Source of the DNA: Eledone cirrhosa
Lineage: Eukaryota
DNA: 64,000 bases
Assembly (NCBI GenBank): GCA_964016885.1
Contig: OZ024741.1
Span: 332,134,001 to 332,198,000, forward strand
Direction: 5' to 3'
A model generated the notes under the pieces. That model was not told the DNA's origin, did not search any database, and saw only the letters and a list, made by a program, of their open reading frames with translations. This document shows, piece by piece, positions 8,370 to 37,917 of the stretch; positions within the stretch are counted from its first letter, which is position 1; each line of letters begins with the position of its first letter. Position numbers and translations under genes: made by a program.

Positions 8370-9258
8370 CTTCTAATTTGTCTTGCGGTACGTGATAAAA
8401 AAAACAACAGACTCCTCTCTGTTTTTCCAGTAGCCTTTTTTTTTTTTGCTTTTTTTTTTCAATCAGATCTGTTTCCAGTGCCGAAATAGCTTGTGGTTAG
8501 AAAAAGCTATCTCACTTACCGCTTTTCATAGGCGCCGTTAAATTCCACTGCTGGTCTCTCCTCTTCCACGTGCGTCCAACTGCTTAACACCGGGAGCTGC
8601 CAAAACTCGCGTCCACACCGTTGCTGGTCACCACTAGAGAGAGACCATCTGCTGGCCCTTCCGGTCGAGCATCCTTCCGGCCAAGCACCCTTCCGGTCGA
8701 GCACTCCCCCGCTTCCGGCCACCGCACGCCACACCATACCCCCCCCTTGTTTGAAGAACTTTGTAACGCGAACTGGCGCGAAATTTATTATAATTATTGA
8801 CCAACCAATCAAATTACTTCTCGAAAAACCTGGCATTTCGAGCCACTTTTCCCATATAAAACAAGGGCACTACAATGCTATTAGCTATCAGTCCAAGCAG
8901 CCGATGGAAACAGGCGAAGGTGACGTCACTCGTCAAACATCGTTTATTTCCGTATTACTACCACGCGTAAGTGGAGTTTTCACGCGTTTTTTGGAGAGAG
9001 AGAGAGGGGGGACTAAAAAGGGCCAAATTAGAAAACAAATAGAAAACAAGTCATGGTTATAAAGCATATCGATGTAAGTGGAGTTACTTAAATGAAAATA
9101 TAGGTGGCCCTTAAAAGGGCCAAATTAGAAAACAAATTTAAGTTAATTAGAAAACAAGTCATGGTTATCAAATAAATTTGATTTATTCATTTATATTTTC
9201 ATTATTCACCAACCTTATTCAAAAGCATGTTTAGAAACATTTTTTTCACCAACCTTAT

Positions 9259-10156
9259 TCAAATGCATGGAATCAGATGACGGATATGTTCTAATAACTT
9301 TTGGAAAATTTCTCCTTTAAATTCATACCGCCACATGAATTCAATGAGATGGTTTTGAAGCAAATTTCTGGCTGTCCCGTTTTCCCTTTTATTCCTATTT
9401 TTTACGTGTTTCCACAAGCATTCTATGTGATTCGTTGTGGCAAATGTTACTGGATCAACAAAATTGATCGAATGGTTCACCGTCAAATGTTGATAGCCTA
9501 GCTGATCGATCGTATTATAGGAACGCCATAGATCAGATATTATGGTTGTCCCTGGCAATATACGATCCTGTATAATGGTTAAAAGTGTCTCCACTGTCCT
9601 GTCTTCTACTGTTACTAAAATACATCTGCTGGTACTTCTTTCCAAAGCACCAAAAACCCACTGTGTTTTCACAGAATGGCCACGATGGTATTTCCTTCTC
9701 ACGAATGCGCTTTCATCAATCTCGACAATTCGGTTTGGCCCGCCAAGCTTAATGTTTTGTGCCACATAGTACTCTGCACAGACATCACGGCAAAAATTTC
9801 GCCAATCTGCTACGGCCACATTCGCGATACGACATTCCTCTGAAATCTTCTTTTGCCCAAAAATATAATATATCAACTATTTGTTCACACTTCAAATTGC
9901 TATTTTCTAAAAATGTGCCTTTTCTAATAATAGAAACCTGTTTTCTACATAGTCTTTTACATGACCAGATAATCCCATCTGACACATTTTGTTTCGCTAC
10001 TTCCAACATACGTTGACCACATGAAGGGCAGACCTTTTGTGTATTCAGAAGTCCTTGAATTTTCAACCAATTGACGGTATCTGCTGTAGTAGCGGTAGCG
10101 ATGGAAAGATCGCGATGGTTAATTCCCTTAACACTTGGATATATTATAGAAGTCAT
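9259..10156 (-). pseudogene. Merlin/IS1016 (ISXO2-like) DDE transposase, one frameshift near 9840-9870
   Basis: N-terminal CPSC..WSC Zn motif and RKGTF; LGGPNRIVEIDES, QWVFG, ILPGTTIISDLWRSY, HLTVNHS.NFVDP, TNHIE.LW, EFMWR. Confidence 0.92.
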
Positions 10157-10480
10157 TTTTCAACTTGCAGATGCGTGTATTATCACAAAGTGAAGATTAA
10201 AGTTTATTTATTTACACGTGGTGTTGGTGATGATTGTTGCTGATTGGTGGGGATTGTCTCCATGGGGACTGTCGCTTGTCTCCATGGGCACTGTATCCAT
10301 GCTTTTGAATAAGGTTGGTGAAAATAATTTGTTTTCTAAACATTTCTTCATAAATATATAGGGTTGGTGAAAAAATTTGATAACCATAATTTGGCCCTTT
10401 TAAGGGTCACCTATATTTTCATTTAAGTTAACTCCACTGTTGGTGAAAATGACTTGTTTTTTATATTGATAACCATAACT

Positions 10481-10618
10481 ATGAAAATATGTGACGTCAT
10501 TCATCAACTACTTTCACTTGACAGCTAATACCATGAACTGTAAAAATACAGTTCAGGGTATTAGCTGTCAGAAGTGAAAGTAGGGGAAGGTTGACGAATG
10601 ACGTCACATATTTTCATG
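10481..10618. repeat. Fold-back of a degenerate TIR-like sequence
   Basis: atgaaaatatgtgacgtcattc...cagctaatacc.tgaactgta / tacagttca.ggtattagctg...gaatgacgtcacatattttcat; shares tattagct.tcag and tgacgtca with the Merlin TIR. Confidence 0.75.
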
Positions 10619-10632
10619 TATGTGTTTGTGTA

Positions 10633-11390
10633 CAAATTTCAATAATATTAAGACACCCTAATGGAGGTTAAACGCCCTATAGTGAAAAGTTTGGCCAATA
10701 AATGGAACAAGATTTTACGAACTCCTCCTATGGTTTTGGAGATAGACCCCCATAATCATATATATTCTGAAACTACATTGCCCAGGGTACTTGTATAAGT
10801 ATATTTCATTTTAATCAAAGGGTTCATCGGGAGCACAAAACCGCCACTGAAACTTTACCTTCGATTTATATAAAATTTAAACCATAGGTAAATGACAAGA
10901 TATGATGCCTTTTCACAAAATTTCAATAAAATTAAAATACCCTAATGGGGGTTAAACCCCCTATTAGGGTTCACCGGTGGCACAAACCCCTGCTGAAAAT
11001 GTTTTCCCTTCGATTTATATGCAATTTAAACCATAGGTAAACGACAAGATATGATGCCTATTCACATCATTTCAGCAAATTTCAATAAAATTACAATACC
11101 CTAATGAGGGTTAAACCCCCTATTAGGGTTCACCAGGGAGCACAAAATCCCCGCAGAAAATGTTTTCTGTTCGATTTATATGCAATTTAAACCATAGATA
11201 AATGAAGAAATATGATGCCTATTCACAAAATTTCAATACTATAAGACACCTTAATGGTGGTTAAACCCCGTATTAGGGTTCCCCGGGGGTACAAACCCTC
11301 ACTGAAAACTTTTCCCTTTCGATTTATATGAAACTTAAACCATAGGTAAATGACAAGATATGATGCCTATTCACAAAAGTTTTCAATTGA
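10633..11390. repeat. Tandem ~150-160-bp repeat with internal hairpin
   Basis: Units at ~10918, 11077, 11228 plus partials; accctaatggggg-ttaaa-ccccctattagggt. Confidence 0.85.
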
Positions 11391-11644
11391 TATTTTGAAA
11401 AAAATTATTTACAAGAAACAAAATAAGAATAAGATTTAATAATGCAATTTTGATTTGATATATTACAAAAAATGATGTTTTCCAATTTTTCATGCATTAT
11501 ATTTTACATTGAGTAATATTGAATTTTTCTCCATAAATTATATCACTGATTTAAAATCAATCATCATTTTCTTACAAAAAAAATGTGTGAAACGCAGCAA
11601 GGCGCTGGTAATTTGGCTAGTATATATATATATATATATATGAG

Positions 11645-12570
11645 TGTGTGTATGCTCATTATGTAGGAGAGGTGTAGGTAGAAACTCCATCCTCTGCCCC
11701 ATATGCAGACTATGGGTACAGAAGAGATGTAGTGGGATCTCAGGAAGTTTAGTTAAGAATGTAGGCTTTACATGTAACAGTTGCACCAGGACAGTAAGCA
11801 GCAAACAATCACTGAAAACAAGTGACATCAAAGTCTGGGAGGACTTGGTAAAAACAATACTGAATTAGCAGTGGAGGAGGGGTGTTCTGAAAGAACGGGA
11901 TGGAAGAAGTTGAGGGAGCTAATGCCACAGCTGGATACAAAAGGCTTTTCCCTCAGAATAAAAGGTAGACTGTATGATGTGTGCATATGAACGGCAATGT
12001 TGCATGGGCGCTGTGTGTAGAAGACTTGCGTAGATGAGAAAGGAATGAAGCTTGTATGCTCCGATGGATGTGTAATAGTAATATACGCGAACAGCAAAGC
12101 ATAAACAAACTGAAAGAGAAACTTGGCATAAGAGGAATCAAATGTGTGCAGGAGAGGAGATTATGTTGGTATGGACATGTGATTCGTATGAAGGATGACA
12201 GCTACATAAAGTCCCAGAAAGACTTGAGATGAAGTGATAAAAGGCGTTATGAGGTAATACAGAAACCCCAACTTCCCACGGGCCCAGGCCAAGGCTGAAA
12301 CATACATACAGTATGCACCACTCCATCCCACCCGCTAATATATCTTTCATGAGAACAGGCCGAAACACTGTAAAGTGGTCGTGATGGTGACACGGTAAAA
12401 AACACCCAGTCCACACTGTAAAGTAGTCGTGGAGGAATCACAACAAAAAACACCCAGTACTCATTGTAAATGAGCTTGGCATTAGGAAGGGAATCCAGCT
12501 GTATAAACCAAGCCAAAATCAGTTCTTTATGAGCAAGACATGGTCACCTGACCTAACATTGCCAACAATA
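11645..12570 (+). mobile_element. Degraded RTE LINE 3' fragment
   Basis: [24 protein letters not shown] and GWKK.RELMP remnants followed by RTE-type 3' UTR. Confidence 0.85.
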
Positions 12571-12572
12571 GA

Positions 12573-12960
12573 AGGCACATGGCTCAGTGGTTAGAGCATT
12601 GGCCTTGCAATTGAAAGGTTGTGAGTTTAATTCTCGGACCGGGTGATGTGTTGTTTCCTTGAGCAAGACACTTTATTTCACATTGCTCCAGTTTACTCAG
12701 CTGTAGAAATGAGATGATACGACTGGGGTCCCTATCATTCCACTGCAAAGTGGTCGTGGAGGTGCCACGGCAAAAAAACAAAAAAAAAAACACCCACCAC
12801 TCACTGTAAATGAAGTTGGTGTTAGGAAGGGCATCCAGCTGTAGAAATCAAGACAGAATCAGTTCCCGTATGAGCAAGACAAGGTCAGCCGACCGAACAC
12901 TGCCCACAACAGGACAACCCATGCTAGCGTAGAAGAACTGACATAAAATGATGATGATGA
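12573..12960 (+). mobile_element. tRNA-headed SINE with RTE-like 3' tail
   Basis: A box tggctcagtgg, B box gagtttaattc, central ccttgagcaagacactt, tail ggttggtgttaggaagggcatccagctgtagaaa...atgatgatga. Confidence 0.88.
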
Positions 12961-13019
12961 AATATAACAGAGTTTTATAGCTTGCTTGAAGCATTGATGA
13001 ATAGGAAACACAAATTTAA

Positions 13020-13340
13020 ATTTTGAAAACCAAGATGAGGGCCTTTGAACCCCAGGCTATTGCAATAGCTGCTCCTGATTTTAGATGTGGAAGACGTGGC
13101 CTGTTCAAGAATTGGTCCAGCTCTCGATGCGAAAGTTTGGTCTTAGTCCCCACCAGGATTTTCCATATGTATATCATTGCATATCTCTCCCATCTTCATT
13201 CCGAGGAGAAGAGTTTCAGTTCTTTTAGACTCTCCTAGTAGTTTATCTCCATCGTGGCAACCTTCTTAGTGTAGCTTCATTGGATTGCTTCAAACTCCAT
13301 GGTTAGTTTGATACAATGGGGTGACCACAGCTGGGAGCAT
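13020..13340 (-). mobile_element. CR1/L2-like LINE C-terminal fragment
   Basis: Minus strand reads CSQLWSP..EAIQ*SYTKKV..ESLKELKLFS..RWERYAMIYIWKIL, typical of the post-RT region of CR1/Jockey-group LINEs. Confidence 0.6.
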
Positions 13341-14040
13341 TCATTTCATTTTACGTCCACTTTTTCCCTGCTTGCAAGGGTGGGACGGGAACTGATTCTG
13401 GCTTGATTTCTACAGCTGGATGCCCTTCCTAACACCAACCTCATTTACAGTGAGTGCTGGGTGCTTTTTTTTCCCATGGCACCTCCACATCCACTTTACA
13501 GTGTGGGCTGGGTGCTTTTTTGCCGTGGCACCTCCACGACCACTTTGCAATGGAATGATAGGGACCCCCAGTCGTATCATCTCATTTCTACAGCTGAGTA
13601 AACTGGAGCAATGTGAAATAAAGTGTCTTGCTCAAGGAAACAACGCATCACCCGGTGTGAGAATTGAACTCACAACCTTTCGATTGCAAGGCCAATGCTC
13701 TCAATCATCATCATCATCATTTCATTTTACGTCCGCTTTTTCCCTGCTTGCAAGGGTGGGACGGGAACTGATTCTGGCTTGATTTTTACAGCTGGATGCC
13801 CTTCCTAACACCAACCTCATTTACAGTGAGTGCTGGGTGCTTTTTTGCCGTGGCACCTCCACGACCACTTTGCAGTGGAATGATAGGGACCCGAGTCCCT
13901 ATCATCTCATTTCTACAGCTGAGTAAACTGGAGCAATGTGAAATAAAGTGTCTTGCTCAAGGAAACAACACATCACCCGGTCTGAGAATTGAACTCACAA
14001 CCTTTCGATTGCAAGGCCAATGCTCTAACCACTAAACCAT
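13340..14040 (-). mobile_element. Two tandem copies of the tRNA/RTE-tail SINE (13340-13700, 13703-14040)
   Basis: Reverse complement of the 12573 and 39912 SINEs. Confidence 0.88.
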
Positions 14041-14073
14041 ATACTCACACATATATATAAACTAATACACACA

Positions 14074-14110
<37 letters not shown>

Positions 14111-14114
<4 letters not shown>

Positions 14115-14271
14115 ATAATAATACATATAAAGACTAAAATCCAAAGAGGGCTCGATAGGGATAAATATATATCAAATATATAAGAACCGTAGAGCAAATA
14201 TTTATTAAAATAACAGATTAAAGTTTAAGCAAAGAATCGGCTGCTTTCACCCTTAATGGGATCTTCTGAAA

Positions 14272-14310
<39 letters not shown>

Positions 14311-15084
14311 ATCTGTGAACGCAGAAGTAAATATTTCGAAAAACGTTGCAACCGAAGGAAGACAGGAAGGCGATACTTTGGTTCGTGGAGACGTAGTTTT
14401 AGGTATTTCTTCCTGCTTGGTACGGGTATGTTCTTTGTAGAAATATTCAGATGTTTCTGCATGATGAATATAAGTCAATAGAGTACTCAGTCAAGGGAGC
14501 CAAATAGTAATAATAATACATATGAAGACTAACATCCAAAGAGGGCTCGATAAGGATAAATATATATCAAATATATAAGAACCGTAGAGCAAATATTTAT
14601 TAAAATAACAGATTAAAGTCTAAGCAAATAATCGGCTCCTTTGACCCTTAATGGGATCTTCTGAAACTAAAAAAAAAAAATCAATGTGTGAACGCAGAAG
14701 TAAATATTTCGAAAAACATTGCAACCGAAGGAAGACAGGAAGACGATACTTTGGTTCGTGGAGACGTAGTTTTAGGTAATTCTTTCTGCTTGGTACGGGT
14801 ATGTTCTTTGTAGAAATATTCAGATGTTTCTGCATGATGAATATAAGTCAATAGAGTACTCAGTCAAGGGAGCCAAATAGTAATAATAATAATAAATTTG
14901 AAGACTAACATCCAAAGAGGGCTCGATAAGGATGAATATATATCAAATATATAAGAACCGTAGAGCAAATATTTATTAAAATAACAGATTAAAGTTTAAG
15001 CAAATAATCGGCTGCTTTGACCCTTAATGGGATCTTCTGAAACTAAAAAAAAAATCAATGTGTGAACGCAGAAGTAAATATTTC
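14111..15084 (-). repeat. Tandem 373-395-bp unit x2.6 with degenerate hammerhead motif (retrozyme/pLTR-like)
   Basis: Units start at 14111, 14506, 14879; abuts (TA)n; minus strand AGUUU CAGAAGA UCCC AUUAA GGGU GAAA GCAG..UUGC UU/AAACU at 14222-14273. Confidence 0.75.
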
Positions 15085-15229
15085 TAAGCCGACCTTTCCC
15101 AATTGCACCTCTCAAGGGCAATGACACACGACCATGACTTCTGGCGTCACACAGTAATACAGAAGACCCGACATTCCACAGAAACATATAGACAATATTT
15201 GTTTACCTTTGTTTTTTTATGTCCTATCA

Positions 15230-18200
15230 ACTAATCCGACCTCCAAAATGCTTGCAATTGACTATTTTTTTTAGCATATTAACAACAAATATGATTTCCA
15301 CTGCAATTAAAAATGACTAGCTTTGTGAATGGTTTTTCCACCCACTTTCTTCCTTCATTTTTCTACAAGGCTAATCATTGACGATAGGTTTCAAAGTTAT
15401 ATTCATTCATAATATGTGAAAAAAATAGTCAACTGCGAGCATTGGTGTGATGTAAATGGTTGGAGTAGGTGTTATGTAATAAATTTACCATATAGTGAAC
15501 TATGGTTATGGTGAATTTATGGTGTGGATTGGGGTAGATTAATGTCCTGTGGTGTGGTTTGTTATAAGTGAGGATTTAAATTTCCACTTTGATTTATGTT
15601 AGAAAAAAAATTTTTCCTTCATTTTTGCATGTGCTCTCAACTTCCAAGATGCTCGCAGTGGATTATGCTTTTAGCATATTAACAAAAAATATGACTTCCG
15701 CTGCAATAAAAAATGATTAGCTTTGTAAATGGTATTTCCACCCACATCCTCCCACTTTTTTCTACAAAGCTAGTCATTTTCATCAGGTTTCCATGTCATA
15801 ACCATTGATAATATGTGCATAAAATAGTAATTTGCGAGCCCCATTTATGTCAAATTGGGTGGTAAACACAAAAAAAAAAAAAAGAAAATTGCCAGATGAA
15901 AATTTGTCACACCAAAATCAACAGCTTGGTGTGATGTAGTATGGTGTGGTTTGGTGAACTTTCTACAAAGATAGTCATTTTCGACAGGTTTCCATGTCAT
16001 AATTACTGATAAGTGGAAAAAAAATAGTCAATTGGGAGCACCTTTAATGTCAGATTGGGTGGTAAGCAAGCACACACAAAAAAAAGGAAACGGGAAGAAA
16101 ATGTTTCACACCAAGATCAATAGCTTGGTGCGATGTAGTATGGTGTAACTTGGTATGGTGTGGTTTGGTTTGGTGAAGTTATGAAATGGAAACCAATTGT
16201 AAACGATAGATTACCATGTCATATTCATTGATAATGTGTGGGGAAATTAGTCATTTGCAAGCACCTTTGATGTTAGTTTGAGGTGGTACCCACAAAAAAA
16301 AAAAAAAAAGCAGGTAGCAAATTTGTCACATTGATCTCCATACCATGGTGTGATGTAAATGGTAGGTGTTCTGTAATAAATTTACCATATAGTGAACTAT
16401 GGTTATGGTGCATTTATGGTGTGGATTGGGGTAGATTAATGTGGTGTGGTGTGCTTCGTTATAAGTGAGGATTTGAATTTCCACTTTGATTTATGTTAGA
16501 AAAAAAATTTTTCCTTCATTTTTGCATGTGCTATCAACTTCCAAGATGCTCACAGTGGATTATGCTTTTAGCATATTAACAGAAAATATGACTTCCGCTG
16601 CAATAAAAAATGGCTAGCTTTGTAAATGGTATTTCCACCCACATCCTCCCTCTTTTTTCTACAAAGCTAGTCATTTTCATCAGGTTTCCATGTCATAACC
16701 ATTGATAATATGTGCATAAAATAGTAATTTGCGAGCCCCATTTATGTCAAATTGGGTGGTAAACACAAAAAAAAAAAAAAAAAAAATTGCCAGATGAAAA
16801 TTTGTCACACCAAAATCAATAGCTTGGTGTGATATAGTATCGTGTGGTTTTGTAAAGTTTCTACAAAGATAGTCATTTTCGACAGGTTTCCATGTCATAA
16901 TTACTGATAAGTGGAAAAAAAATAGTCAATTGGGAGCACCTTTAATGTCAGATTGGGTGGTAAGCAAGCACACACAAAAAAAAGGAAACGGGAAGAAAAT
17001 GTTTCACACCAAGATCAATAGCTTGGTGTGATGTAGTATGGTGTAACTTGGTATGGTGTGGTTTGGTTTGGTTTGGTGAAGTTATGAAATGGAAACCAAT
17101 TGTAAACGATAGATTCCCATGTCATATTCATTGATAATGTGTGGGGAAATTAGTCATTTGCAAGCACCTTTGATGTTAGTTTGAGGTGGTAACCACAAAA
17201 AAAAAAAGAAAGCAGGTAGCAAATTTGTCACATTGATCTCCATACCATGGTGTGATGTAAATGGTAGGTGTTCTGTAATAAATTTACCATATAGTGAACT
17301 ATGGTTATGGTGCATTTATGGTGTGGATTGGGGTAGATTAATGTGGTGTGGTGTGTTTTGTTATAAGTGAGGATTTAAATTTCCACTTTGATTTATGTTA
17401 GAAAAAAAATTTTTCCTTCATTTTTGCATGTGCTCTCAACTTCCAAGATGCTCGCAGTGGATTATGCTTTTAGCATATTAACAAAAAATATGACTTCCGC
17501 TGCAATAAAAAATGATTAGCTTTGTAAATGGTATTTCCACCCACATCCTCCCTCTTTTTTCTACAAAGCTAGTCATTTTCATCAGGTTTCCATGTCATAA
17601 CCATTGATAATATGTGCATAAAATAGTAATTTGCGAGCCCCATTTATGTCAAATTGGGTGGTAAACACGAAAAAAAAAAAAATTGCCAGATTAAAATTTG
17701 TCACACCAAAATCAATAGCTTGGTGTGATGTAGTATGGTGTGGTTTTGTACAGTTTCTACAAAGATAGTCATTTTCGACAGGTTTCCATGTCATAATTAC
17801 TGATAAGTGGAAAAAAAATAGTCAATTGGGAGCACCTTTAATGTCAGATTGGGTGGTAAGCAAGCACACACAAAAAAAAAAGGGAAACGGGAAGAAAATG
17901 TTTCACACCAAGATCAATAGCTTGGTGCGATGTAGTATGGTGTAACTTGGTATGGTGTGGTTTGGTTTGGTTTGGTGAAGTGATGAAATGGAAACCAATT
18001 GTAAACGATAGATTACCATGTCATATTCATTGATAATGTGTGGGGAAATTAGTCATTTGCAAGCACCTTTGATGTTAGTTTGAAGTGGTAACCACAAAAA
18101 AAAAAAAAAAGCAGGTAGCAAATTTGTCACATTGATCTCCATACCATGGTGTGATGTAAATGGTAGGTGTTCTGTAATAAATTTACCATATAGTGAACTA

Positions 18201-21200
18201 TGGTTATGGTGCATTTATGGTGTGGATTGGGGTAGATTAATGTGGTGTGGTGTGCTTCGTTATAAGTGAGGATTTGAATTTCCACTTTGATTTATGTTAG
18301 AAATAAAATTTTTCCTTCATTTTTGCATGTGCTATCAACTTCCAAGATGCTCGCAGTGGATTATGCTTTTAGCATATTAACAAAAAATATGACTTCCGCT
18401 GCAATAAAAAATGATTAGCTTTGTAAATGGTATTTCCACCCACATCCTCCCTCTTTTTTCTACAAAGCTAGTCATTTTCATCAGGTTTCCATGTCATAAC
18501 CATTGATAATATGTGCATAAAATAGTAATTTGCGAGCCCCATTTATGTCAAATTGGGTGGTAAACACAAAAAAAAAAAAAAAAAAAAAAATTGCCAGATG
18601 AAAATTTGTCACACCAAAATCAATAGCTTGGTGTGATGTAGTATGGTGTGGTTTGGTGAACTTTCTACAAAGATAGTCATTTTCGACAGGTTTCCATGTC
18701 ATAATTACTGATAAGTGGAAAAAAAATAGTCAATTGGGAGCACCTTTAATGTCAGATTGGGTGGTAAGCAAGCACACACAAAAAAAAGGAAACGGGAAGA
18801 AAATGTTTCACACCAAGATCAATAGCTTGGTGCGATGTAGTATGGTGTAACTTGGTATGGTGTGGTTTGGTTTGGTGAAGTTATGAAATGGAAACCAATT
18901 GTAAACGATAGATTACCATGTCATATTCATTGATAATGTGTGGGGAAATTAGTCATTTGCAAGCACCTTTGATGTTAGTTTGAGGTGGTAACCACAAAAA
19001 AAAAAAAAAAAAGCAGGTAGCAAATTTGTCACATTGATCTCCATACCATGGTGTGATGTAAATGGTAGGTGTTCTGTAATAAATTTACCATATAGTGAAC
19101 TATGGTTATGGTGCATTTATGGTGTGGATTGGGGTAGATTAATGTGGTGTGGTGTGCTTCGTTATAAGTGAGGATTTGAATTTCCACTTTGATTTATGTT
19201 AGAAAAAAAATTTTTCCTTCATTTTTGCATGTGCTATCAACTTCCAAGATGCTCGCAGTGGATTATGCTTTTAGCATATTAACAAAAAATATGACTTCCG
19301 CTGCAATAAAAAATGATTAGCTTTGTAAATGGTATTTCCACCCACATCCTCCCTCTTTTTTCTACAAAGCTAGTCATTTTCATCAGGTTTCCATGTCATA
19401 ACCATTGATAATATGTGCATAAAATAGTAATTTGCGAGCCCCATTTATGTCAAATTGGGTGGTAAACACAAAAAAAAAAAAAAAAAATTGCCAGATGAAA
19501 ATTTGTCACACCAAAATCAATAGCTTGGTGTGATATAGTATCGTGTGGTTTTGTAAAGTTTCTACAAAGATAGTCATTTTCGACAGGTTTCCATGTCATA
19601 ATTACTGATAAGTGGAAAAAAAATAGTCAATTGGGAGCACCTTTAATGTCAGATTGGGTGGTAAGCAAGCACACACAAAAAAAAGGAAACGGGAAGAAAA
19701 TGTTTCACACCAAGATCAATAGCTTGGTGTGATGTAGTATGGTGTAACCTGGTATGGTGTGGTTTGGTTTGGTTTGGTGAAGTTATGAAATGGAAACCAA
19801 TTGTAAACAATAGATTCCCATGTCATATTCATTGATAATGTGTGGGGAAATTAGTCATTTGCAAGCACCTTTGATGTTAGTTTGAGGTGGTAACCACAAA
19901 AAAAAAAAAGAAAGCAGGTAGCAAATTTGTCACATTGATCTCCATACCATGGTGTGATGTAAATGGTAGGTGTTCTGTAATAAATTTACCATATAGTGAA
20001 CTATGGTTATGGTGCATTTATGGTGTGGATTGGGGTAGATTAATGTGGTGTGGTGTGTTTTGTTATAAGTGAGGATTTAAATTTCCACTTTGATTTATGT
20101 TAGAAAAAAAATTTTTCCTTCATTTTTGCATGTGCTATCAACTTCCAAGATGCTCGCAGTGGATTATGCTTTTAGCATATTAACAAAAAATATGACTTCC
20201 GCTGCAATAAAAAATGATTAGCTTTGTAAATGGTATTTCCACCCACATCCTCCCTCTTTTTTCTACAAAGCTAGTCATTTTCATCAGGTTTCCATGTCAT
20301 AACCATTGATAATATGTGCATAAAATAGTAATTTGCGAGCCCCATTTATGTCAAATTGGGTGGTAAACACAAAAAAAAAAAAAATTGCCAGATTAAAATT
20401 TGTCACACCAAAATCAATAGCTTGGTGTGATGTAGTATGGTGTGGTTTTGTACAGTTTCTACAAAGATAGTCATTTTCGACAGGTTTCCATGTCATAATT
20501 ACTGATAAGTGGAAAAAAAATAGTCAATTGGGAGCACCTTTAATGTCAGATTGGGTGGTAAGCAAGCACACACAAAAAAAAGGGAAACGGGAAGAAAATG
20601 TTTCACACCAAGATCAATAGCTTGGTGCGATGTAGTATGGTGTAACTTGGTATGGTGTGGTTTGGTTTGGTTTGGTGAAGTGATGAAATGGAAACCAATT
20701 GTAAACGAAAGATTCCCATGTCATATTCATTGATAATGTGTGGGGAAATTAGTCATTTGCAAGCACCTTTGATGTTAGTTTGAAGTGGTAACCACAAAAA
20801 AAAAAAAAAAAGCAGGTAGCAAATTTGTCACATTGATCTCCATACCATGGTGTGATGTAAATGGTAGGTGTTCTGTAATAAATTTACCATATAGTGAACT
20901 ATGGTTATGGTGCATTTATGGTGTGGATTGGGGTAGATTAATGTGGTGTGGTGTGCTTCGTTATAAGTGAGGATTTGAATTTCCACTTTGATTTATGTTA
21001 GAAAAAAAATTTTTCCTTCATTTTTGCATGTGCTATCAACTTCCAAGATGCTCGCAGTGGATTATGCTTTTAGCATATTAACAAAAAATATGACTTCCGC
21101 TGCAATAAAAAATGATTAGCTTTGTAAATGGTATTTCCACCCACATCCTCCCTCTTTTTTCTACAAAGCTAGTCATTTTCATCAGGTTTCCATGTCATAA

Positions 21201-22400: not shown

Positions 22401-22544
22401 TAGGTTAGTGTGGTGTGGTGTGTTATTGTGTTGCATCGTATAGCGTGATTCTCTTTAAATTAAAATCATTAAAATGTAATGCCTATCTTCTATATCTTAA
22501 AGAGTGACTTTAAATGTGATTGCAAATGACTTTTTTCTCTGGAT

Positions 22545-27129: not shown

Positions 27130-28113
27130 ATTTCTATTTATTGCCACTAGGGTGCAAAAGAAGGGGACAAATACAAGGGGGGAGTTTACACAAAAAGGCA
27201 AGTAAAGAAAACATAACAAATTTAAAATTAACAATAAAGTCCTCAATAGGGAGGGGGCGTTTGGGGGGTCGCACACACACCCCCGAAAAAAGTGTGCAAC
27301 CCCTTCTCCTCAGGAGCACAGAGAGAGGGTGCTCCCTCGTTCCTTCCTTTTTTCCACCTACAGGCTGATATAGAGAGAAGGCCCATTCACACGGGCCATT
27401 CTCCCCACTTTCACCCACCTTTCATAAAAACGACTGGGGTTGAGCATCTCTCTCCATCCTGATCCTTCTTCCGAATGATATCGGAAGAAACGGATCAGTT
27501 GTTGGCCAGAGAGAAAGGTGCCTGACCTGAGTCCTTTCAGACACGTCCATCATACAACCTCTTTCACCATGGCACAGAAACACCGCCTCTCCTTCAATTT
27601 TGAAGGGGGGAGGCGGCTTAATCGTTACAATGGCCTCGGTTGTCAACCGGATCGGTCCCACCCTTGATAGCAGTCGTTCGACATAGCCCCACAGATCGGC
27701 TACGCCCGAGCAGTGTACCAATACGTGTGCAACGGTTTCCTCGTTGTGCACGCATCTGGGACAGATCTTTTTGGCGGGGTCCCTACCCGTGCGCCCGTGT
27801 CTGTAGAGCTTTTCTTGGGAAGTTGTCCATAGGTCCCGGGCTGAATGTCCTACCGAACAGGCTGGCCAGTTTGTCTTCCTCCATGTCTAGGGCTTCTCCG
27901 AGGGCGTCGTCGCACCTGCTGCGTACCAGCCCTCTATAGAATGTCGCGGTGGAGTCTCCACTGATAACCGGGTCCACCTGCCAGAGGGCTGTGAGCGCCT
28001 AGGCACACTCAGTGTGCCAGGCGCCCAGTTTTCTCGGTCTTTGCTTGACCCAAGATTGCAGATCGGTGAGTGAGATGAGTCTGGGAAAGGTTCGTCTCAT
28101 AAACGGGGCCCAC
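27130..28113 (-). mobile_element. L1/Tx1-clade LINE 3' fragment with 12-bp TSD
   Basis: C..C...EETVAHVLVHC..LW CCHC finger (~27660-27765); TSD ACAAATATATAG at 27118-27129 and 28114-28125; aataaa at the 3' end. Confidence 0.8.
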
Positions 28114-28184
28114 ACAAATATATAGCTGATCTCTCAGACTTTCACGAAACACTGAGGAGATACAGTTAATATAACAAGTGGGAA

Positions 28185-28233
<49 letters not shown>

Positions 28234-28594: not shown

Positions 28595-28960
28595 CAGTGG
28601 TGTGGTGTGGTGTAGTGTAGTGTGGTTTAGTGTAGTGGAGTGTGGTTTAGTGTAGTGGACAGTGGTGTGGTGTAGTGGAGTGTGGTTCAATGTAGGGTGG
28701 GGGATATTGTGTAGTGGAGTGTGGTGGGATGTAGTGTGGCATGTGGTGTGATGGCATGTGATGTGGCGTGGCGTGATGTGATGTGATGAAATGTGGCGTG
28801 GCGTGGTGAAATGTAATGTTATGTGATGAAATGTGGCGTGGCGTGGTGAAATGAGGTGTGGCGTGGTGAAATGAGGCGAGGCGAGGCGAGACGAGACGTG
28901 ATGTGATATGGTGTGATGTGGTGAGATATGGTGTGATGTGCTGTGGTGTGATGTGATGTG
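28595..28960. repeat. (TGTGG/TGTGA/TGTAG)n pentamer array
   Basis: 5-bp periodicity; similar tracts at 22200-22430, 26355-26570, 28230-28300, 30100-30410. Confidence 0.9.
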
Positions 28961-29374
28961 AAATTTTTTCATCCTATTTTTCATGTGCTATCAACTAATC
29001 CAATCTCCAAGATGCTTGAAACTGACTTTCTCCCCCCAGGAAAACGGCGGGGTGAGGTGGTTCCCCTTTCACCCGGATAACCCCTGCTTACTCGGAATTT
29101 TCTCTTTGATTCTATTTTCATGCATTATCAGTGAATATGACTTCCAAACCAGTCAAAAACAACTAGCTTTGGAGAAAGAGGAGGGAGAGGGGAAGAGTTT
29201 TGCAGATCTACACCTCACTCACATGTTGTGGGACTTAATCATTTTCGGTATATTTCCTGTGCTATTAATTTCCTATGCTATTTCCTATGCTATTTCCTAT
29301 GCTATTTCCTGTGCTATTTCCTGTGCTATTAATTAATCTGACCTCCTAGATGCTTCCAACCAACTTATTTCCCT

Positions 29375-29750
29375 GGGTTAGGTTTAGGGTAATGTTTAGG
29401 GTTTAGTTTTAGGGTTGGGGTAGTTTTTAGGGTCTAGCTTTAGGGTTGGGGTAAGTTTAGGGTTTAGTTTTAGGTTTGGGGTAAAGTTTAGGGTTTAGTT
29501 TTAGGTTTGGGGTAATGTTTAGGGTCTAGTTTTAGGGTAAAGTTTAGGGTTTAATTTTAGGTTTGGGGTAATGTTTAGGGTCTAGTTTTAGGGTTGGGGT
29601 AATGTTTAGGGTTTTGTTTTATGGTTGGGGTATAGTTTAGGGTTTAGTTTAAGGGTTGGGGTAATGTTTATATTTAGATTTAGCTTGGTTTGGTTTAGAT
29701 TTAGAGTTTAGGGTTGGGGCTAGATTTAATTTTATGTTTAATTTAGTTTT
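29375..29750 (+). repeat. Degenerate telomere-like (TTAGGG/TTTAGGG) interstitial array with ~25-bp superperiod
   Basis: tttagggtttagttttagggttggggtaatg repeats. Confidence 0.8.
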
Positions 29751-30600
29751 AGTTTCCAAATCCCAGAAAAAAAAATTGATTCAGAGCAACTAAAAGGTCA
29801 GATTAGATGATAGCACTCAAAAGGAGACCGAAGAAAAATCATTTGGGTATATATCTACAAAACGACAATGGTTTTTCCACCTGCTTTACTCCTCCTTTTT
29901 CCTAGAACAACTAATCATTTCCAACTGGTTTGGAGGTCATATTTGTTGATAACATACGAAAAATCTTAGAGAAAACTCTGGGGTTAAATGAGAGAAGTGC
30001 ATCCACCTAAGTTTTCCATGAAGAGAGAGTCAATAACAAACATCTTGGAGTTCGGATTAGTTGATAACGCATGAAAAACAGATGAGGAAAAAATTTTGGG
30101 TGTATGTGGTGTGAAGTAGTGTTTTTTTTTTTTTTTTTTGTGGTGTAATGTAGTGAGGTGTGTTTTTATGTGGTGTGATGTAGTGAGGTGAGGTGTGGTG
30201 TGTTGTGTTGTGTTGTGGTGTTATGTGGTCTGGAGTAGTGTGGTGTGTTGTAGTGAGGAGTGGTGTGTTGTGTTGTAGTGAGGAGTGGTGTGTTGTGTTG
30301 TGGTGTTATGTGGTGTGGTGTAGTTTTGTATGTTTTTATGTGGTGTGGTGAAGTGTGGGGTGATGTGGTGTTGTGCACTGCGATGTGGTGTGGTGCGGTG
30401 CAGTGAGGTTCTTCATCTTTATCTTTCTCTTCTTCATCTTTGTATTCATCTTCTTTGTTTTGTCTTCCATCTAAAAAAAAAAAAATTATATATAAAACAT
30501 ATATGTAGCCAATCTCTAAGACTTTTACAAAGCTCCAGGGAGATAAATTTAATATAAGTGGTGTGTTTCTGAACAGAGATACTACAAAATAGCTTAAAAG

Positions 30601-30653
<53 letters not shown>

Positions 30654-31193
30654 CATTTATATATAAATAAATATACACGGGTGTGTATGATTGTGTATAG
30701 AAGATTATATTAATAAAAGGAATTCCAACTTTGTCTGATTTACTCGTTTTATTTACAATCCTTTAAAATTATAATGGTATTAGAATGAAATAGCATGGTA
30801 GAATATTAAGTGTTAATTGAACAAGTAATTTCATGCTTTCGCAATCTTCAGGTTCATATTCTGTGGTGACAGTCAAGTTTACAATTTTCAACTGTAATGA
30901 GATGGGTAAATTTTGTGCCTTAGTGAAAGCGGCTACAGAATGCTATATTTTGCAAACTGTAATTCGACCAATCGGTGTGTAGTTTCACTGGATTACTGAA
31001 GCTGATTGGTTTAGGCATCACGGTTGGTTGGGCATGTCTAACGACTTCTATTTGGCCCTATTCAAAGCATCAATTGTTTTGCTATTTTTAGAAATGATGA
31101 AAATAGCATTTTCTAGGGTTTTTATACCCCTAAGAATTATTATTGTTCATTTAGCTTGGGTTGGAATTTTGAAACATATTCCCAAATGCAAAT

Positions 31194-31484
31194 ATGAAGT
31201 GCAAAAGCAGAAATCTAATTTACTGCATTAAATGCCCAAATTGTGAAGAACTATATGTCGGTCAAACTGGAAATGCACCATCGGAACGTGCACGGGTGCA
31301 CCGACAGCAAATCAGAGACCCAAATGTCCATGAGATACCCCTGAGTAACCATCTAGCAATATGTGGTCAGAATATGTTTATAATATTTCCATTCTACAAA
31401 TTACACAGGCCAAGTGAAATCAAGAGAAAAATCAAAGAAAAGAATTTTATTGATAAATTCCAACCAAAGCTAAATGAACAATAA
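31194..31484 (+). pseudogene. GIY-YIG endonuclease domain of a Penelope-like element
   Basis: CKSRNLIYCIKCPNCEELYVGQT..ER.RVHRQQI..H..E..I.KF.PKLN; CCHH pattern of PLE endonucleases. Confidence 0.88.
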
Positions 31485-31774
31485 TAATTCTTAGGTGTAT
31501 AAAAAGCCTAGAAAATGCTATTTACATCATTTCTAAAAATAGCAAAACAATTGATGCTTTGGATAGAGCCAAATAGAAGTCGTTAGACATGCTCAACCAA
31601 CCATGATGCCTAAACCAATCAGCTTCAGTAATCCAGTGAAACTACACACCAATTGGTCGAAATACAGTTTGCAAAATATAGCATTCTGTAGCCGCTTTTC
31701 ATTGTATATAAGGCACAACATTTACCGATCTCATTACAGTTGAAAATTGCAAACTTGATTGTCACCACATAATA

Positions 31775-31813
31775 TGAACCTGAAGATTGCGAAAGCATGA
31801 AAGTACTTGTTCA
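31775..31813 (+). ncRNA. Type I hammerhead motif with stem II reduced to 4 nt (mirror copy 30818-30856, minus)
   Basis: UGAAC CUGAAGA UUGC GAAA GCAU GAAA GUAC UU/GUUCA. Confidence 0.65.
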
Positions 31814-32384
31814 ATTAACATTTAACACTTAATATTCTACCATACTATTCAGATTACATCCATAAAATTCAGATTACATCTATATATATACACATACATA
31901 TATATATACATTCATATATACACTTCTACAAAATAATGTAAAAATACCATTTTCTTCTTGTCTCTCCACCCTTCGGTTCATTCATCCATATATCTGTATA
32001 ATCGCCCAAAATCCAATCCTACTTTCTCAATGCTATTCTATAATTCTGTCTGGATGTTCTAAATAATCTTGTGTATTTTAAAATCCCAGTATATCGCTTG
32101 TTACTGTTATATGCTTTATTTAAAACCTTCTCCTCGCTAACTACCCCATACCGCTCCCTCCCGCCCCCACTCTCCACCATTATTATTTGGACCAATCATA
32201 AGTCAGCGGCCTATGCTATCACTTCTGGTTGCTTTTCGATATGATGGATAGACTAAGGAATTCTGGAGAGTCTGAAGAATCTGGACACTCAGAGACAATG
32301 CCAAAGATAACGACAAATTCACCTCATGCTGCCGGACGAAAGGGCAAGGACTCCTCCTCTATGTTTCGGCCGCGGATGGCCAAC

Positions 32385-35300
32385 ATAAAGTGAACGACAG
32401 AATAATTAAAATAAGACTTGTTCTAAATAGAACTACTGTGACAGTAATATCTGCGTACGCACCCCAATCCGGACTGCCTGGTGCTATAAAAGACAGATTC
32501 TATGAGACACTGATGCTCACTACCTCCCAAATAACCGACAGTGACTATATAATTATTGCTGGTGACCTAAATGGTCACGTTGGACAACATTGTGACGGCT
32601 ATGACGGAATCCACGGAGGCTATGGGTTTGGTACTAGAAATGAGGAAGGCTCCAGAACCCTGGAATTCTGTGACGCAAATAACCTAACTATCTGTAACAC
32701 TAACTTCAAAAAACGAGACAATCACTTGAGCACCTACAGATCAGGGGAACATACCAGCCAGGTAGATTATATCCTTACCAGCAGACGTGACAGAGTATCT
32801 GTTGTAAACACTAAATCCCTCCCCCATGAAGAATGCACCTCTCAACATAGACTCATAATTAACGACCTCATAGTCAGGATGAGACGTACTCGACAACAGA
32901 AGGGGACTATCCTCAGGAAAAAAATATGGAAGCTAAAGGACCCCACAGCCAGTAATAAATTTAAAAGCATATTACTTGATGCTTTCGACAGTAAGGAAGA
33001 GCAGTTAGAGTCGTACAATATAGAGGAACAGTGGGAATTCCTGAAACCAAACCTGCTGATGGCGACAGATGAAGTCTGCGGCTGGAGCAGGCCTATAGGC
33101 AGGAGGAGAGTAACATGGTGGTGGAACAGTAAGGTGGAGGAGTCAATTAAGGCCAAAAAGCAGGCTTGGAAAGTATGGTGGGATGGGGGAAGTAGAGAAA
33201 CTATCAAGTGGCCAGGAGGGAAGCTAGGAGACAAGTGTACTTCGCAAGAAGGGAAGCAGAGGAAAGAAAGTTCAAGCATGTTCTACAACGCGAGGACCAA
33301 AAACGTGAAGTGTTCAGGATTGCTAGGCAATGTGTCAAGGAAAACCGTGATATTGTCGTGGAGAAGTGTATCCTTAATGATGATGGTGTACTTGCCATCA
33401 CTGACGCTGATAAGTAGGTAGCTTGGAAGTGTCACTACGAAAGGCTACTAAATGAGAATAAATGGGAGAAAGACAGTCTCCCTCACATCAATCCAATAGA
33501 GGGACCAGCAGTGCTAGTTGAAGGTAGTATAATAAGTAAGGCAATCAAAGATGTGAAGACGGGTAAGGCAGCTGGGCCTTCGGAAATAGTTGCTGAAATG
33601 CTGAAAGCATCTGGAACGGTGGGACACACTATGGTCACCCGGATAGTAAACCAAGTCATACAGAATGGGGTTGTTCCGAAGGACTGGCGTAGCAGCATCA
33701 TCATTAACTGCTACAAGGGTAAAGGAGATGCCCTAGATATGGGTAACTATAGAGGCATTAAATTAATCGACCAGGTCATGAAGGTCACAGAAAAAGTAAT
33801 AGCGCAACTAATCAGAGAGCGAATTGATCTAGATGAAATGCAGTTCGGGTTTGTGCCAGGTAAAAGTACCACAGACACTCTTTTCATTGTACGTCAACTA
33901 CAGGAGAAGTACCTAGCTAAAAATAAACCCCTATACTTAGCTTTTGTCGACTTGGAGAAAGCCTTTGGCAGAGTCCCCCGTTACATTATCTGGTGGGCTC
34001 TTAGAAAACTAGGTGTTGATGAATGGCTTGTGAGAGCTATACAAGCCATGTATAAAGAAACAGTCAGCAAGGTTAGAATTAACAATGAATATAGTGAAGA
34101 GTTTAGCGTAAAAGTTGGTGTTCATCAGGGCTCCGTTCTTAGCCCCCTACTATTTATTATTGCCCTTCAGGCTATAACAGTAGAGTTGAAGACCGGCTGC
34201 CCATGGGAACTCCTATACGCAGATAATCTAACGCTCATAGCTGAATCAATGGCTGAACTAGAGAAGAAATTCCAAACATGAAAGCATGGCATAGAATCAA
34301 AAGGCCTTAAAATTAACCTGCCTAAGACTGTCTAGTTTGTAGGAAGGAAAATAGGGCACCGGTCCAATACGGGAAATGGCCATGCTCAGTGTGTAGGAAA
34401 GGAGTAGGCAGAAACTCCATTTTATGTCCCCAATGCAAAGTATGGGTGCATAAAAGATGTAGTGGTATCACAGGTAAGCTAACTAAGAATATAGATTTTA
34501 TATGTGGCCGGTGCTCTGGTGCAATAAGTAGCAGCAAGTGCCCACAGAATACTAGCTCATTTCATTGCACAGATGGTTCTATAGTAATAGTGGACACCTT
34601 CCTTTACCTGGGTGACAAAATCAGCAGTGGTGGAGGATGCTTTGAAAGTACAGTAGCTAGAGTCAGAACTGGATGGAAAAAGTTCAGAGAGCTTATACCA
34701 CTATTAGCCGCTAAAGGGTTCTCTCTAAAAATGAAAGGCAGGCTTTATGATGCCTGCATACGAACAACAATGTTACATGGCAGTGAGACCTGGGCATTGT
34801 GTGCAGAGGATATACGCAGACTAGAGAGGAACGAAGCTTGCATGCTCCGCTGGATGTGTAATAGTAATATACGTGAACGGCAAAGCATAAACGAACTAAG
34901 GGAAACATTAGAAATAAGAGGGATCAGATGCTGTTTACTCGAGAGAAGACTACGTTGGTACGGTCACGTGATGCGCATGAAAGACGACAGCTGTATAAAA
35001 AAGTACAGGGCGATAAAAATAGACGGTCGCCACGGAGTAGGCAGACCCAGAAAAACCTGGGACGACTTGATAAATTCCGACTTCACACACTTACACCTCT
35101 CCAAGACAATGTCACTGGACCGAGATCTTTGGCGCTACACAGTCATAGAGAAGACCCGCCTTACCTAAAGTACAAAGTGAAGTACAAAGTGAAACCTACC
35201 ACAGTGAGTAGGCACCTCTAACAAAATACACCCCGTCCCACTACCCCCACCCGATCCACACCACCCTTGTCAATGTAAAGTTATGTTGGTACCACAACAT

Positions 35301-35557
35301 CCAGCCCGAAACAAATGAGGTCGTGTAGGTGTCACGACAAAAAAACACACAGACCACGCTGTAATGTGGCCGTGTAGGTAACACGGTAAAAACCTATCAG
35401 TCCACACTGTAAACGTGGTTGGTGTTACGAAGGGCATCCAGCCATAGAAAACCCGCCAGACAGTCCTATGCGAGCAAGACAACCAATCTTGCCTCAAGTG
35501 GGAAAACTCCCGTCCAAACCCATGCAAGCGTGGAAGATGGACGTTAAACGATGATGA
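32385..35557 (+). mobile_element. RTE LINE with APE endonuclease and RT, disabled
   Basis: APE motifs ISAYAPQ, AGDLNGHVG, QVDYIL, SQHRL (32390-32870); RT closely similar to 2277-3818 but with YADN, stops at ~33415 and 34279 and frameshifts at ~33203 and ~34321; (GAT) tail. Confidence 0.93.
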
Positions 35558-35719
35558 TATACATACATACACACATATACACATATACATGCATATATAT
35601 ACACATATACATATATATACATGCATATATATATATATATATATATACAATATGTATAGGATTCCTTTCCCTTTGAGCACATAATTTACAGGGAATAACG
35701 CGACTCTATGGCTCTATCT

Positions 35720-36215: not shown

Positions 36216-36220
36216 AAATA

Positions 36221-36553
36221 TATACGATATTAATAAATGGAAACTATATTTATAAAACCATATTTATTTCATTATACATATTTCAGGGATACCAAATTAA
36301 ATTATGGTATGCCTTCATCAGACAAAATACAATATTAACAGTTTTACAGATAAGCTTTGACGTACCCTTTTGGATGGCCTCCAAAAATAATGGTCGCATT
36401 TTAAAAGGGTACGTCAAAGCTTATTTGTAAAACTGTTATATATTGTATTTTGTCTGATGAAGGCATACCATAATTTAATTTGGTATCCCTGAAATATGTA
36501 TAATGAAATAAATATGGTTTTATAAATATAGTTTCCATTTATTAATATCGTAT
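36221..36553. mobile_element. PLE-type fold-back, ~150-bp arms and ~31-nt spacer
   Basis: 36221-36370 inverted at 36402-36553; tail continues to ~36641; same family at 50805-51040 (minus) and 37230-37320. Confidence 0.8.
36446..36510 (+). ncRNA. Type I hammerhead ribozyme (mirror 36265-36329; relative 50935-51000, both minus)
   Basis: UAUUUUGU CUGAUGA AGG-C-AUACCA..UGGUAU-C-CCU GAAA UAUGUA UA/AUGAAAUA; 8-bp stem I with two GU pairs. Confidence 0.75.
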
Positions 36554-36638
36554 ATCTACTCCAAATACTTGTCGAGTGCTTTATATCAGTTATAAAAATA
36601 TTTACTTGTTGTATCCCAACAATTTTAAATAGAACTTT

Positions 36639-36680
<42 letters not shown>

Positions 36681-37545
36681 ACTTGACGAGGAGCATTCTA
36701 GTTGTTCAATAAACTGATTGAATAATACAAACGATGTTTTAATATCCAGATTCATTATTTGTGTATATATATATACAAAGCTTATAAATAAATTTACAGT
36801 AGAATAACATAGCAAATATGTTTTAAATATATACATAAATAACATTACAAATGTTTAAATAACATTATAAATTGCTCGCGATTCTTTCAGAAGGATATAT
36901 TCCTTTAATGTTGCAATATTAAAGAAAATATACGTATATATATATATACATACATATATTTATTCAACTAAGGAAAGCTGGTTGATTGAAAATCTGCCGA
37001 CTATTTCATAAGAGATGACAAACACTCAACAGTTTATGTTTATCCGGAGTTTTATTATAATAATTGTTTCTACTTTGGCACAAGGCCAGCAAATACCCAG
37101 TGTATTACTGGTACTTACAATGTAAATTTTCAAATGTATTACAGAGCCGAGATACAAAATATAAAACAATAAAATCTTAGTTTAATACCATTGCTGATAA
37201 ATTTTTTTTTACATACATATATATATATACAATATATTAATAAATGGAAACTATATTTATAAAACCATATTTATTTTATATATATTTTAAGGGCCACCGC
37301 TTTCATCAGATAAAATACATATATATATATATATACATACACACATATATATATGTATGTATGAAACTTAATTATTCGTGTAATGCGACTCTGTAACGTT
37401 TTTAATAATTATTTGATATTACTTACCTTCTTATCTTTTGCTTTCATTGTTTCTAATTTTCCCCTGCGTTTGTTGACATTGCGAGAAAAATGGCGCCAAA
37501 CTTTTCCCTTTGAAAGAATAATGTGATAGTGTTCACGTGATATAT

Positions 37546-37723
37546 AGCTGTCAGTCGTGAAAGCAGCCGATGAAAGCAGGCGAAGGTGACGTCATTCGTC
37601 ATCGTTTATTTCCGTATTACTACCACCAAGTAACTCCACTTACGCGTGGTAGTAATACGGAAATAAACGATGTTTTGCTTTCATCGGCTGCTTTCGACTG
37701 ACAGCTCATAGCGTTGTAGTGCC
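37546..37723. repeat. Right Merlin TIR (37630-37723) preceded by an inverted TIR copy (37546-37627)
   Basis: Both match 8866-8978 and form a local hairpin. Confidence 0.85.
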
Positions 37724-37917
37724 AAAACAAGTAACATTCAGAGACCAACCAGATGTGAGAAAAACCACAGACCCTCCATCTCAACTCTACTTTTGAAAAG
37801 CAGAAGAACTGCGAAACCGGTAAAGGAACCAAATAAATATATATATTTTTTTTTAAATAAGTCTCCAGTTGCATTTTCGATTTCATCTTTTTTTCTTTAT
37901 ATATATATATATATACA

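Follow-up and report, generated by a model that had tools for sequence, protein, structure and literature searches.

A 28.9-kb Merlin-bounded interval of Eledone cirrhosa as a probable copy of a dispersed family of giant Merlin transposons

We analysed a stretch of 64,000 nucleotides from Eledone cirrhosa (assembly GCA_964016885.1, contig OZ024741.1, positions 332,134,001 to 332,198,000 of the forward strand), hereafter the window, which contains no N and in which an interval of 28.9 kb (8858–37731) is bounded by the ends of a Merlin transposon. This interval is very probably one copy of a multi-copy family of 17–48-kb Merlin elements, which likely spread as whole units of 20–25 kb, by cut-and-paste and with a single DDE transposase of ~300 aa. 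The spread as whole units is deduced from the distinct target-site duplications (TSDs) of the copies, their collinear bodies, a star-like divergence of ~3%, the variable presence of nested insertions, and the intact transposase frames in two copies of the giant type. Judged by the sequence of its termini, TSD and protein domain, the family is a Merlin family. Furthermore, of the two readings offered by the original prediction—a giant satellite-carrying Merlin, or a smaller element that had grown in place—the former is favoured by the collinear modules found between distinct TSDs at unrelated loci, the growth in place being real, but secondary.

Paired ends and duplications across the genome

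The inverted, GG-tipped ends were found where they had been predicted, their tips, at 8866 on the left and 37723 on the right, being identical at 24 of 27 bases, and the similarity described over ~100 bp amounts to 74.6% in a gapped alignment of 8866–8978 with 37723–37632. The left end (8866–9127, plus strand) consists of the terminal inverted repeat (TIR) and a subterminal arm of ~260 bp, and in small relatives, whether of 1.75 kb or foldback, this arm makes up either end; the right end (37545–37723, minus strand) is a hairpin of ~180 bp composed of a tip-less inner TIR (37545–37626), which matches the tip of a 2.2-kb sister Merlin (L163), and the GG-tipped outer TIR. Both ends abut the same 8-mer, AAAACAAG, at 8858–8865 and, by comparison of the ends, at 37724–37731 (both read on the plus strand), as had been claimed, and the left junction is unique in the genome.

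A search of the 3.0-Gb genome with a 26-nt tip pattern yielded 167 + 156 = 323 exact matches, of which the first 100 listed came from C1 and most of C2. Among these 100 tips we found 29 inward pairs at less than 100 kb: 22 at 18–59 kb (median 27.4 kb), 7 at less than 5 kb and none between, so that the long form outnumbers the short one among these young, exact-tip pairs; by chance, 0.15 pairs of 15–65 kb would have been expected. All 22 large pairs were checked for TSDs, with the result that 17 had a perfect 8-bp duplication—the window element among them, together with one pair closed by an outer tip 1.4 kb further out and one in a run of TA—while 2 matched at 7 of 8 positions and 3 had none. 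Because 19 of the 22 large inward pairs carry 8-bp TSDs, a chance pairing of the ends is excluded. Eleven further large pairs, obtained in other searches, comprised 7 with a TSD, 1 without, 2 left undecided, and 1 probable composite of 40.3 kb with a 4-nt tip loss. Overall, 26 of the 33 large pairs tested (17.2–48.2 kb) possess TSDs, which are all different and contain 3 mismatches in 208 sites; the duplication measures 8 bp in the window element and the 25 other large copies, and 9 bp in one copy of 7.5 kb. The pairing of ends by TSD that the original prediction had proposed thus returned distinct duplications enclosing 17–48 kb at unrelated loci. A unique interior segment of 321 bp had 165 candidate places, the 40 scored being 97–99% identical, which number fits with the 323 exact tips; the family therefore likely has ~150–160 copies, some of which are segmental duplicates, and would total ~4 Mb (an estimate from ~160 copies of 27 kb).

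These same data bear on the possibility that the family was spread by segmental duplication, or by ectopic recombination between small ends of Merlins or of miniature inverted-repeat transposable elements (MITEs), and not by transposition of whole units. Some copies do lie in periodic duplications (four matches each on C211 and C5), and the mosaic ends of others suggest recombination between copies; but the homology does not extend beyond the GG tips, and the 8-bp duplications differ from copy to copy (26 distinct ones). A recombination between two MITEs predicts mismatched flanks, as in the 4 pairs lacking a TSD, whereas TSD-matched ends with unrelated flanks were what we generally observed, so that we regard a spread by duplication or recombination as highly improbable.

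Regarding the arrangement of neighbouring copies, the interior matches in tandem segmental duplications, four on C211 and four at C5:12.48–13.05 Mb, are spaced by 130–220 kb. An identical head-to-head junction, in which one left end sits 4 nt inside the tip of another, occurs at C2:233.618 Mb, C1:125.545 Mb and C2:298.096 Mb (L221, L225 and L014), and at C2:298.06–298.10 Mb it forms the 40.3-kb composite with a probable TSD. The right ends of F6 and of the copy at C1:206.2, and the outer ends of those at C2:233.6 and C1:125.5, were not found within the 20–40 kb fetched.

The shared body and its cargo

Twenty whole copies cover 30–99% of the window element, and the one with 99% coverage (E09, 25.3 kb) aligns with it in a collinear chain of ~23 kb at 90%. 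When 23 junction probes were compared with 25 other copies, 13 were present in 16–22 copies, 5 in 7–11, 2 in 4 and 3 in none. The order common to the fetched copies, with ~3% divergence, comprises 148-, 373- and 900-bp repeats, a hexamer block and nested long interspersed nuclear elements (LINEs). Accordingly, the modules whose recurrence had been proposed as a test—the 148-bp repeat (given as 150 bp in the original prediction), the 900-bp satellite and the hexamer block—are indeed found again at unrelated loci, where they lie between the ends in an unchanged order.

In the window element this cargo begins with a 148-bp tandem repeat of ~4 units (10819–11387, plus strand), whose downstream junction is present in 21 of 25 other copies, and continues with an old LINE 3' fragment (11652–12210) and three copies of a common short interspersed repeat, which tract (11652–14129) is covered in 16–19 of 20 copies. 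Next are a 373-bp tandem repeat (14109–15087, plus strand), recognized by repeat and copy comparison; the 900-bp satellite (15202–22255, plus strand), with ~8 monomers of ~200-bp subunits, compared to 0.8–13 monomers in the other copies; and a G/T-rich, hexamer-based block of low complexity with no maintained reading frame (22540–26300, plus strand), both borders of which are found in 19 of 25 copies. A 984-bp LINE 3' fragment with a weak zf-RVT match (27130–28113, minus strand) follows, nested between its own 12-bp TSD (27118–27129 and 28114–28125); then pentamer arrays (28597–30400, plus strand) flanking an old inverted-repeat element with an internal TTAGGG-like array (29378–29740), with junctions in 21–22 of 25 copies; a small foldback of two ~390-bp arms at 92% (30789–31849), whose left junction is in 20 of 25; and, by its Pfam matches, a nested and broken LINE with endonuclease (EN), reverse transcriptase (RT) and PHD domains and a short-repeat tail (31900–35558, plus strand), which is collinear in E08, E09, E13 and E14.

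The nested 984-bp fragment is present in 11 other copies, its site is empty in 11 and missing in 3, and the cargo was therefore gained stepwise and then spread; by its sequence, this fragment is best read as having entered one giant and multiplied with it. That a small Merlin had instead inserted in the window and grown there, by nested insertions and array expansion, would be in keeping with an interior made mostly of retroelement pieces and tandem repeats, with the ~8 satellite monomers being more alike to each other than to those of other loci, and with the large private insertions of some copies (~26 kb in F7; others in some copies of 40–48 kb). At unrelated loci whose outer TSDs differ, however, the same modules, junctions and nested TSDs are found again in order, and growth in place accounts for only ~4 of the 29 kb; as the main process it is refuted by the junctions common to 16–22 of 25 copies, and we give it next to no credence. 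Those ~4 kb represent a local expansion of the satellite, since the full monomers of the window are 96–99% alike and at most 95% similar to those of other loci, their number being ~8 in the window versus 1–4 in most copies.

The satellite itself appears to be tied to the family. Of 295 candidate loci 32 were scored, and the 18 loci listed on C1 and C2 were checked against the tips: 15 lie within or near exact tips (7 of them judged by position only), and the remaining 3, once fetched, proved to be one TSD-bounded element, one locus in which a right tip occurs along with an assembly gap, and one tip-less locus within 22 kb of collinear body, so that none of these 18 was free of the element.

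The hexamer block was considered, and rejected, as a cargo gene, because the reading phase switches 10–22 times per copy (17 blocks) and the majority sequence contains no frame of more than 215 codons (12 blocks), although alignment of such low-complexity DNA is unreliable; its 6-nt periodicity is codon-like, and its indels occur in multiples of 6, as slippage predicts. This block is pertinent to a further possibility—that the giant is the ancestral functional form, with the interior (e.g., hexamer block or satellite) being kept because it is needed for movement—in whose favour the giants exceed the small forms among exact-tip pairs (22 vs 7) and cluster at 22–31 kb, and the minus strand of the hexamer block reads as a peptide rich in Asn, Thr, Ala and Asp. 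Against it stand the phase switches and the lack of a long frame, along with the finding that copies devoid of large interior parts are still TSD-bounded (E14, of 17.2 kb), as are forms of 0.2–3.3 kb. The outgroups are also small: the bounded sister and outgroup Merlins measure 1.4–3.8 kb (L163, L165, L242, L251, L253, L255, L258 and L260), and the sisters alone 1.4–2.2 kb, while no TSD-bounded pair was found at 14 of 20 distant loci. An ancestral giant is thus very unlikely.

No polymerase, capsid or viral genes were recognized among the open reading frames (ORFs) that reach 220 aa or more in 21 copies, which frames were assigned by eye, or with Pfam for those of the window, to Merlin, RT/EN/integrase, Tc1-like or low-complexity sequences; nor was a host domain found among the interior window ORFs scanned with Pfam, which included at most a minority of the short interior ones. 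Between 16000 and 31000 the plus strand of the window is persistently G/T-rich, with TTAGGG-like and GTTAGT arrays, a tract that may, speculatively, be captured subtelomere-like DNA.

Transposase, small relatives and origin

A Merlin transposase near the left end, as the original prediction had it, was confirmed on the minus strand at ~10156–9259 (Pfam DDE_Tnp_IS1595, E 8.6e-19). This gene of the IS1016/IS1595-type DDE class carries in the window copy a single frameshift near 9840–9880, but its frame is intact elsewhere: among 30 fetched transposase loci, 3 had ATG-started frames of 300–302 aa, namely L145, which belongs to a TSD-bounded copy of 48.2 kb, L146, from a giant body for which no right end was found, and L158, from a copy of 7.5 kb. 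The transposases of intact copies match DDE_Tnp_IS1595 with E 6.7e-19 and 2.2e-19, and in L146 the DDE motifs IDES, SDLW and HIECL start at 150, 211 and 247. A CxxC..CxxxC motif is present, the match to Zn_Tnp_IS1595 being below threshold (13.7 bits vs a cut-off of 25.4, E 0.06), and the nearest database relatives are octopus ISXO2-like proteins at 73–85% identity. The ratio of nonsynonymous to synonymous differences (pN/pS) was 0.74 among 21 copies of the family, compared with 0.21–0.31 to four sister Merlins, as would be usual where selection acts between bursts and copies decay after them. That the element is excised and inserted by the Merlin transposase may be presumed from the distinct TSDs and from this pN/pS of 0.21–0.31 to sister lineages.

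The transposase occupies the left end in 8 of 20 copies; 11 of the other 12 have instead a common left arm of ~5 kb with an RTE-like fragment, mostly behind a two-tipped MITE of 0.35–0.4 kb. In the core of 3.8 kb, the substitution distance is ~3% between copies and 1.2–3.1% from the majority sequence (1.8% for the window), in a star-like tree of 22 rows from which 4 copies with less than 1.5 kb aligned were left out. By a borrowed rate (0.09 = 25 million years; PMC13282606), the age would be ~4–5 million years. For O. vulgaris, that same source gives 2 recently active Merlin families with 11 insertions and 28,998 bp, i.e., small ones.

With respect to the origin of the giant unit, an inverted copy of 9077–9127 (10387–10438) and a palindrome of two tip-less TIR-like motifs (10481–10617) adjoin the 5' end of the transposase gene, and together (10387–10617) they likely represent the dead right end of an ancestral small Merlin. 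These vestigial inner motifs, and the right-end hairpin with its inner half matching the L163 tip, suggest the loss of the right tip by a small Merlin and its recourse to a distant end, in the way of composite transposons; we consider this origin somewhat more probable than not. In such a sequence of events, a 1.5–2-kb Merlin would have lost the right tip, upon which its transposase could have paired the surviving left end with a distant end of a Merlin or MITE, in the manner of a bacterial composite transposon, and taken along the repeat-rich DNA between them; the unit might then have gained further LINEs and amplified in a single burst. The transposase-less form would have arisen with a left end of a ~0.35–0.4-kb MITE plus ~5 kb of other DNA, while the frameshifted window copy may have moved in trans, or before its break, to land in one arm of a common host repeat, where the 900-bp array would have grown by ~4 kb.

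Several observations, nonetheless, weigh against the reading of a dispersed giant family, or at least complicate it. Of the 33 large pairs, 4 lack a TSD, 2 are undecided and 1 is merely probable, and the TSD of E05 falls in a run of TA and is uninformative. Of the 23 junction probes, 3 were absent from all other copies and 2 were confined to 4 of them, and between 30% and 99% of the window element is covered, so that the copies must since have undergone much rearrangement. In E01, E02, E14, E16 and F1 the left and right markers form a mosaic, so that recombination between copies may obscure the succession of events. For the composite origin the evidence consists of vestigial motifs, with one of five alignments (the inner end against the right end of L165) being no better than shuffles. 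We saw no near-identical sister, empty allele or element-spanning read, for which reason a current activity is not supported.

As to the small relatives, mirror-image Merlins of 2.8–3.3 kb (L008/L026, L020/L143 and L153/L168) consist of two transposase arms that fold near the palindrome at 10481–10617 and have TSDs matching at 7–8 of 8 positions; they could also have been derived from the giant by fold-back at that palindrome. The 2.18-kb sister at C1:326.31 and C1:326.33 Mb (L163 and L164) has a TSD that matches a word in the giant's right subterminal region (~37480), which suggests an insertion into another giant. In one run of restriction-site-associated DNA (RAD) sequencing more than 20,000 reads join 10574 back to 10430, and the resulting 145-bp tandem, which was not found as an array in a search of the assembly, is possibly a collapsed satellite. 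When contigs and RAD reads were aligned to 8300–10700, none of the pieces listed crossed the left junction, a comparison that does not bear on contiguity or empty alleles.

Known elements, stem-loop and landing site

Merlins are described as having TIRs of 24–462 bp with terminal 5'-GG, TSDs of 8 or 9 bp, and a DDE_Tnp_IS1595 domain with no N-terminal Zn_Tnp_IS1595 (PMC8101967), and the Eledone element resembles them in its GG termini, 8-bp TSD, DDE_Tnp_IS1595 transposase and internal tandem repeats. The upper size of ~10 kb that the original prediction had quoted for the group was too low: in the Repbase table reproduced there, Merlin-2_DR reaches 13,661 and Merlin-1_DR 10,335 (PMC8101967), which figures, being coordinates, make 13.7 kb a lower bound. 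With a typical unit of 22–31 kb, and up to 48 kb, the Eledone family is about twice the largest coordinates of that table, and differs further from known Merlins in that whole nested LINEs and a 900-bp satellite are shared cargo, and in that transposase-bearing and transposase-less giant subfamilies exist. We found no giant Merlin in the literature, although Repbase itself, Feschotte 2004, subscription papers or the repeat library of PMC13282606 could hold one.

Other oversized TIR elements have been documented, such as the 16–20-kb En/Spm of Chondrus, Pack-MULEs of up to 7 kb and the foldback-bounded Ising transposable element (TE) of Drosophila (PMC6431247); like the Eledone family, they are moved by DDE enzymes with extra DNA between the ends, and the Ising TE is composite, as the giants may be. 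In size the Eledone giants exceed those En/Spm cases that have no extra ORFs, and they form a dispersed family of TSD-verified copies. With KolobokP and bacterial composites they would share the movement of intervening DNA by the outer ends of paired small units, which also move alone; but the autonomous KolobokP families quoted measure 4.0–4.7 kb and have direct terminal units and a His-Me nuclease (PMC9587614). The ends of the Eledone giants, in contrast, are unequal inverted remnants, and the unit is 5–10 times larger. Starships are fungal elements with a tyrosine recombinase. Those reported with hitchhiking TEs (PMC13004909) are likewise large elements carrying other TEs, from which the Eledone giant differs as an animal DDE/TIR element, no host genes having been found among the interior window ORFs that were scanned.

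The efficiency of TIR transposition is reported to fall above ~6 kb of cargo, natural barriers to size being expected (PMC6431247), and natural eukaryotic elements would accordingly stay lean; the Eledone family lends itself, as a natural case, to testing how large an element a eukaryotic IS1016-type transposase can move, and the intact frames make a capacity for large cargo assayable. Lopes et al. (2021) proposed that Merlins could spread proto-satellites (PMC8101967), and this family directly exhibits a satellite dispersed by a Merlin, as well as LINEs that multiply as passengers. Repeat-annotation pipelines are likely to split such copies into LINE, short interspersed nuclear element (SINE) and satellite pieces, and to misdate them.

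A stem-loop of the histone 3'-UTR (untranslated region) type lies in the subterminal arm (9082–9126, minus strand), 141 nt after the transposase stop and on the sense strand, with 34 bits in Rfam RF00032—equal to the gathering score—and E 2.1e-6; across copies the scores were 34–37 bits against that cut-off of 34. Such a motif was observed in both subterminal arms, at 9082–9126 (minus) and ~10390–10435 (plus) in the window, and in L146, L162, L163 and L167. Close sisters possess it, whereas L165 and nearly all distant Merlins lack it; as a general Merlin feature it found no support, since none of 20 more distant loci passed the Rfam gathering score and a pattern scan gave 1 of 20. Because the stem-loop belongs to the inverted arm, it comes to lie downstream of the gene automatically, and there is an AATAAA upstream of it, which makes any function of it putative; no clear purine-rich element was seen by eye downstream of it. 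A limited literature search yielded no published account of a histone stem-loop in Merlins. A broader proposal, in which a 20–30-kb composite would be the main moving form and seed the 900-bp satellite and LINEs, while a histone stem-loop, captured as the end of the transposase mRNA, would tie the timing of transposition to S phase, is in our opinion improbable as a whole, on account of the putative stem-loop function; its part on size and cargo, taken separately, is well supported and highly probable.

Concerning the landing site, the outer flanks joined by one 8-mer do reproduce the minus strand of ~4373–4402, as had been noted, but the interpretation of that stretch as the preserved pre-insertion site does not hold, because it is a paralogue and not the empty allele of this locus. 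The left flank (8770–8865) is 99% identical to 4483–4388, and the right flank (37724–37934) 94% to 4395–4187. The uninterrupted arm (4187–4500, minus strand) and its interrupted partner—8737–8857 plus 37732–37934 or, with the TSDs, 8737–8865 joined to 37724–37934—form an inverted pair, each with a terminal TA run, from which it follows that the target of the Merlin was one arm of a host element of ~5 kb; the supposed empty site is, on this comparison, to be read as the other arm of that element, and displays only what the target looks like. The target word of the host repeat (a 24-mer) occurs in 1,814 exact copies, many of them paired in inverted orientation at 0.2–5 kb from each other, and both arms in the window share a variant present in only 17 copies; of 20 fetched host-repeat copies, which, as top matches, are biased towards similarity, 13 match the filled arm at 205/206 positions.

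The host element itself (4187–37981 of the window) is ~5 kb long, TA-flanked and provided with long inverted arms, of which there are at least 1,814 copies, and within it lies a GC-rich fragment of a long-terminal-repeat (LTR) retroelement with integrase and RNase H-like matches (5318–6393). In addition, a palindrome of Penelope-like ORFs occupies 40500–45200 of the window (41027–42841, minus strand, and 42707–44656, plus strand), with weak Pfam matches to RT and GIY-YIG.

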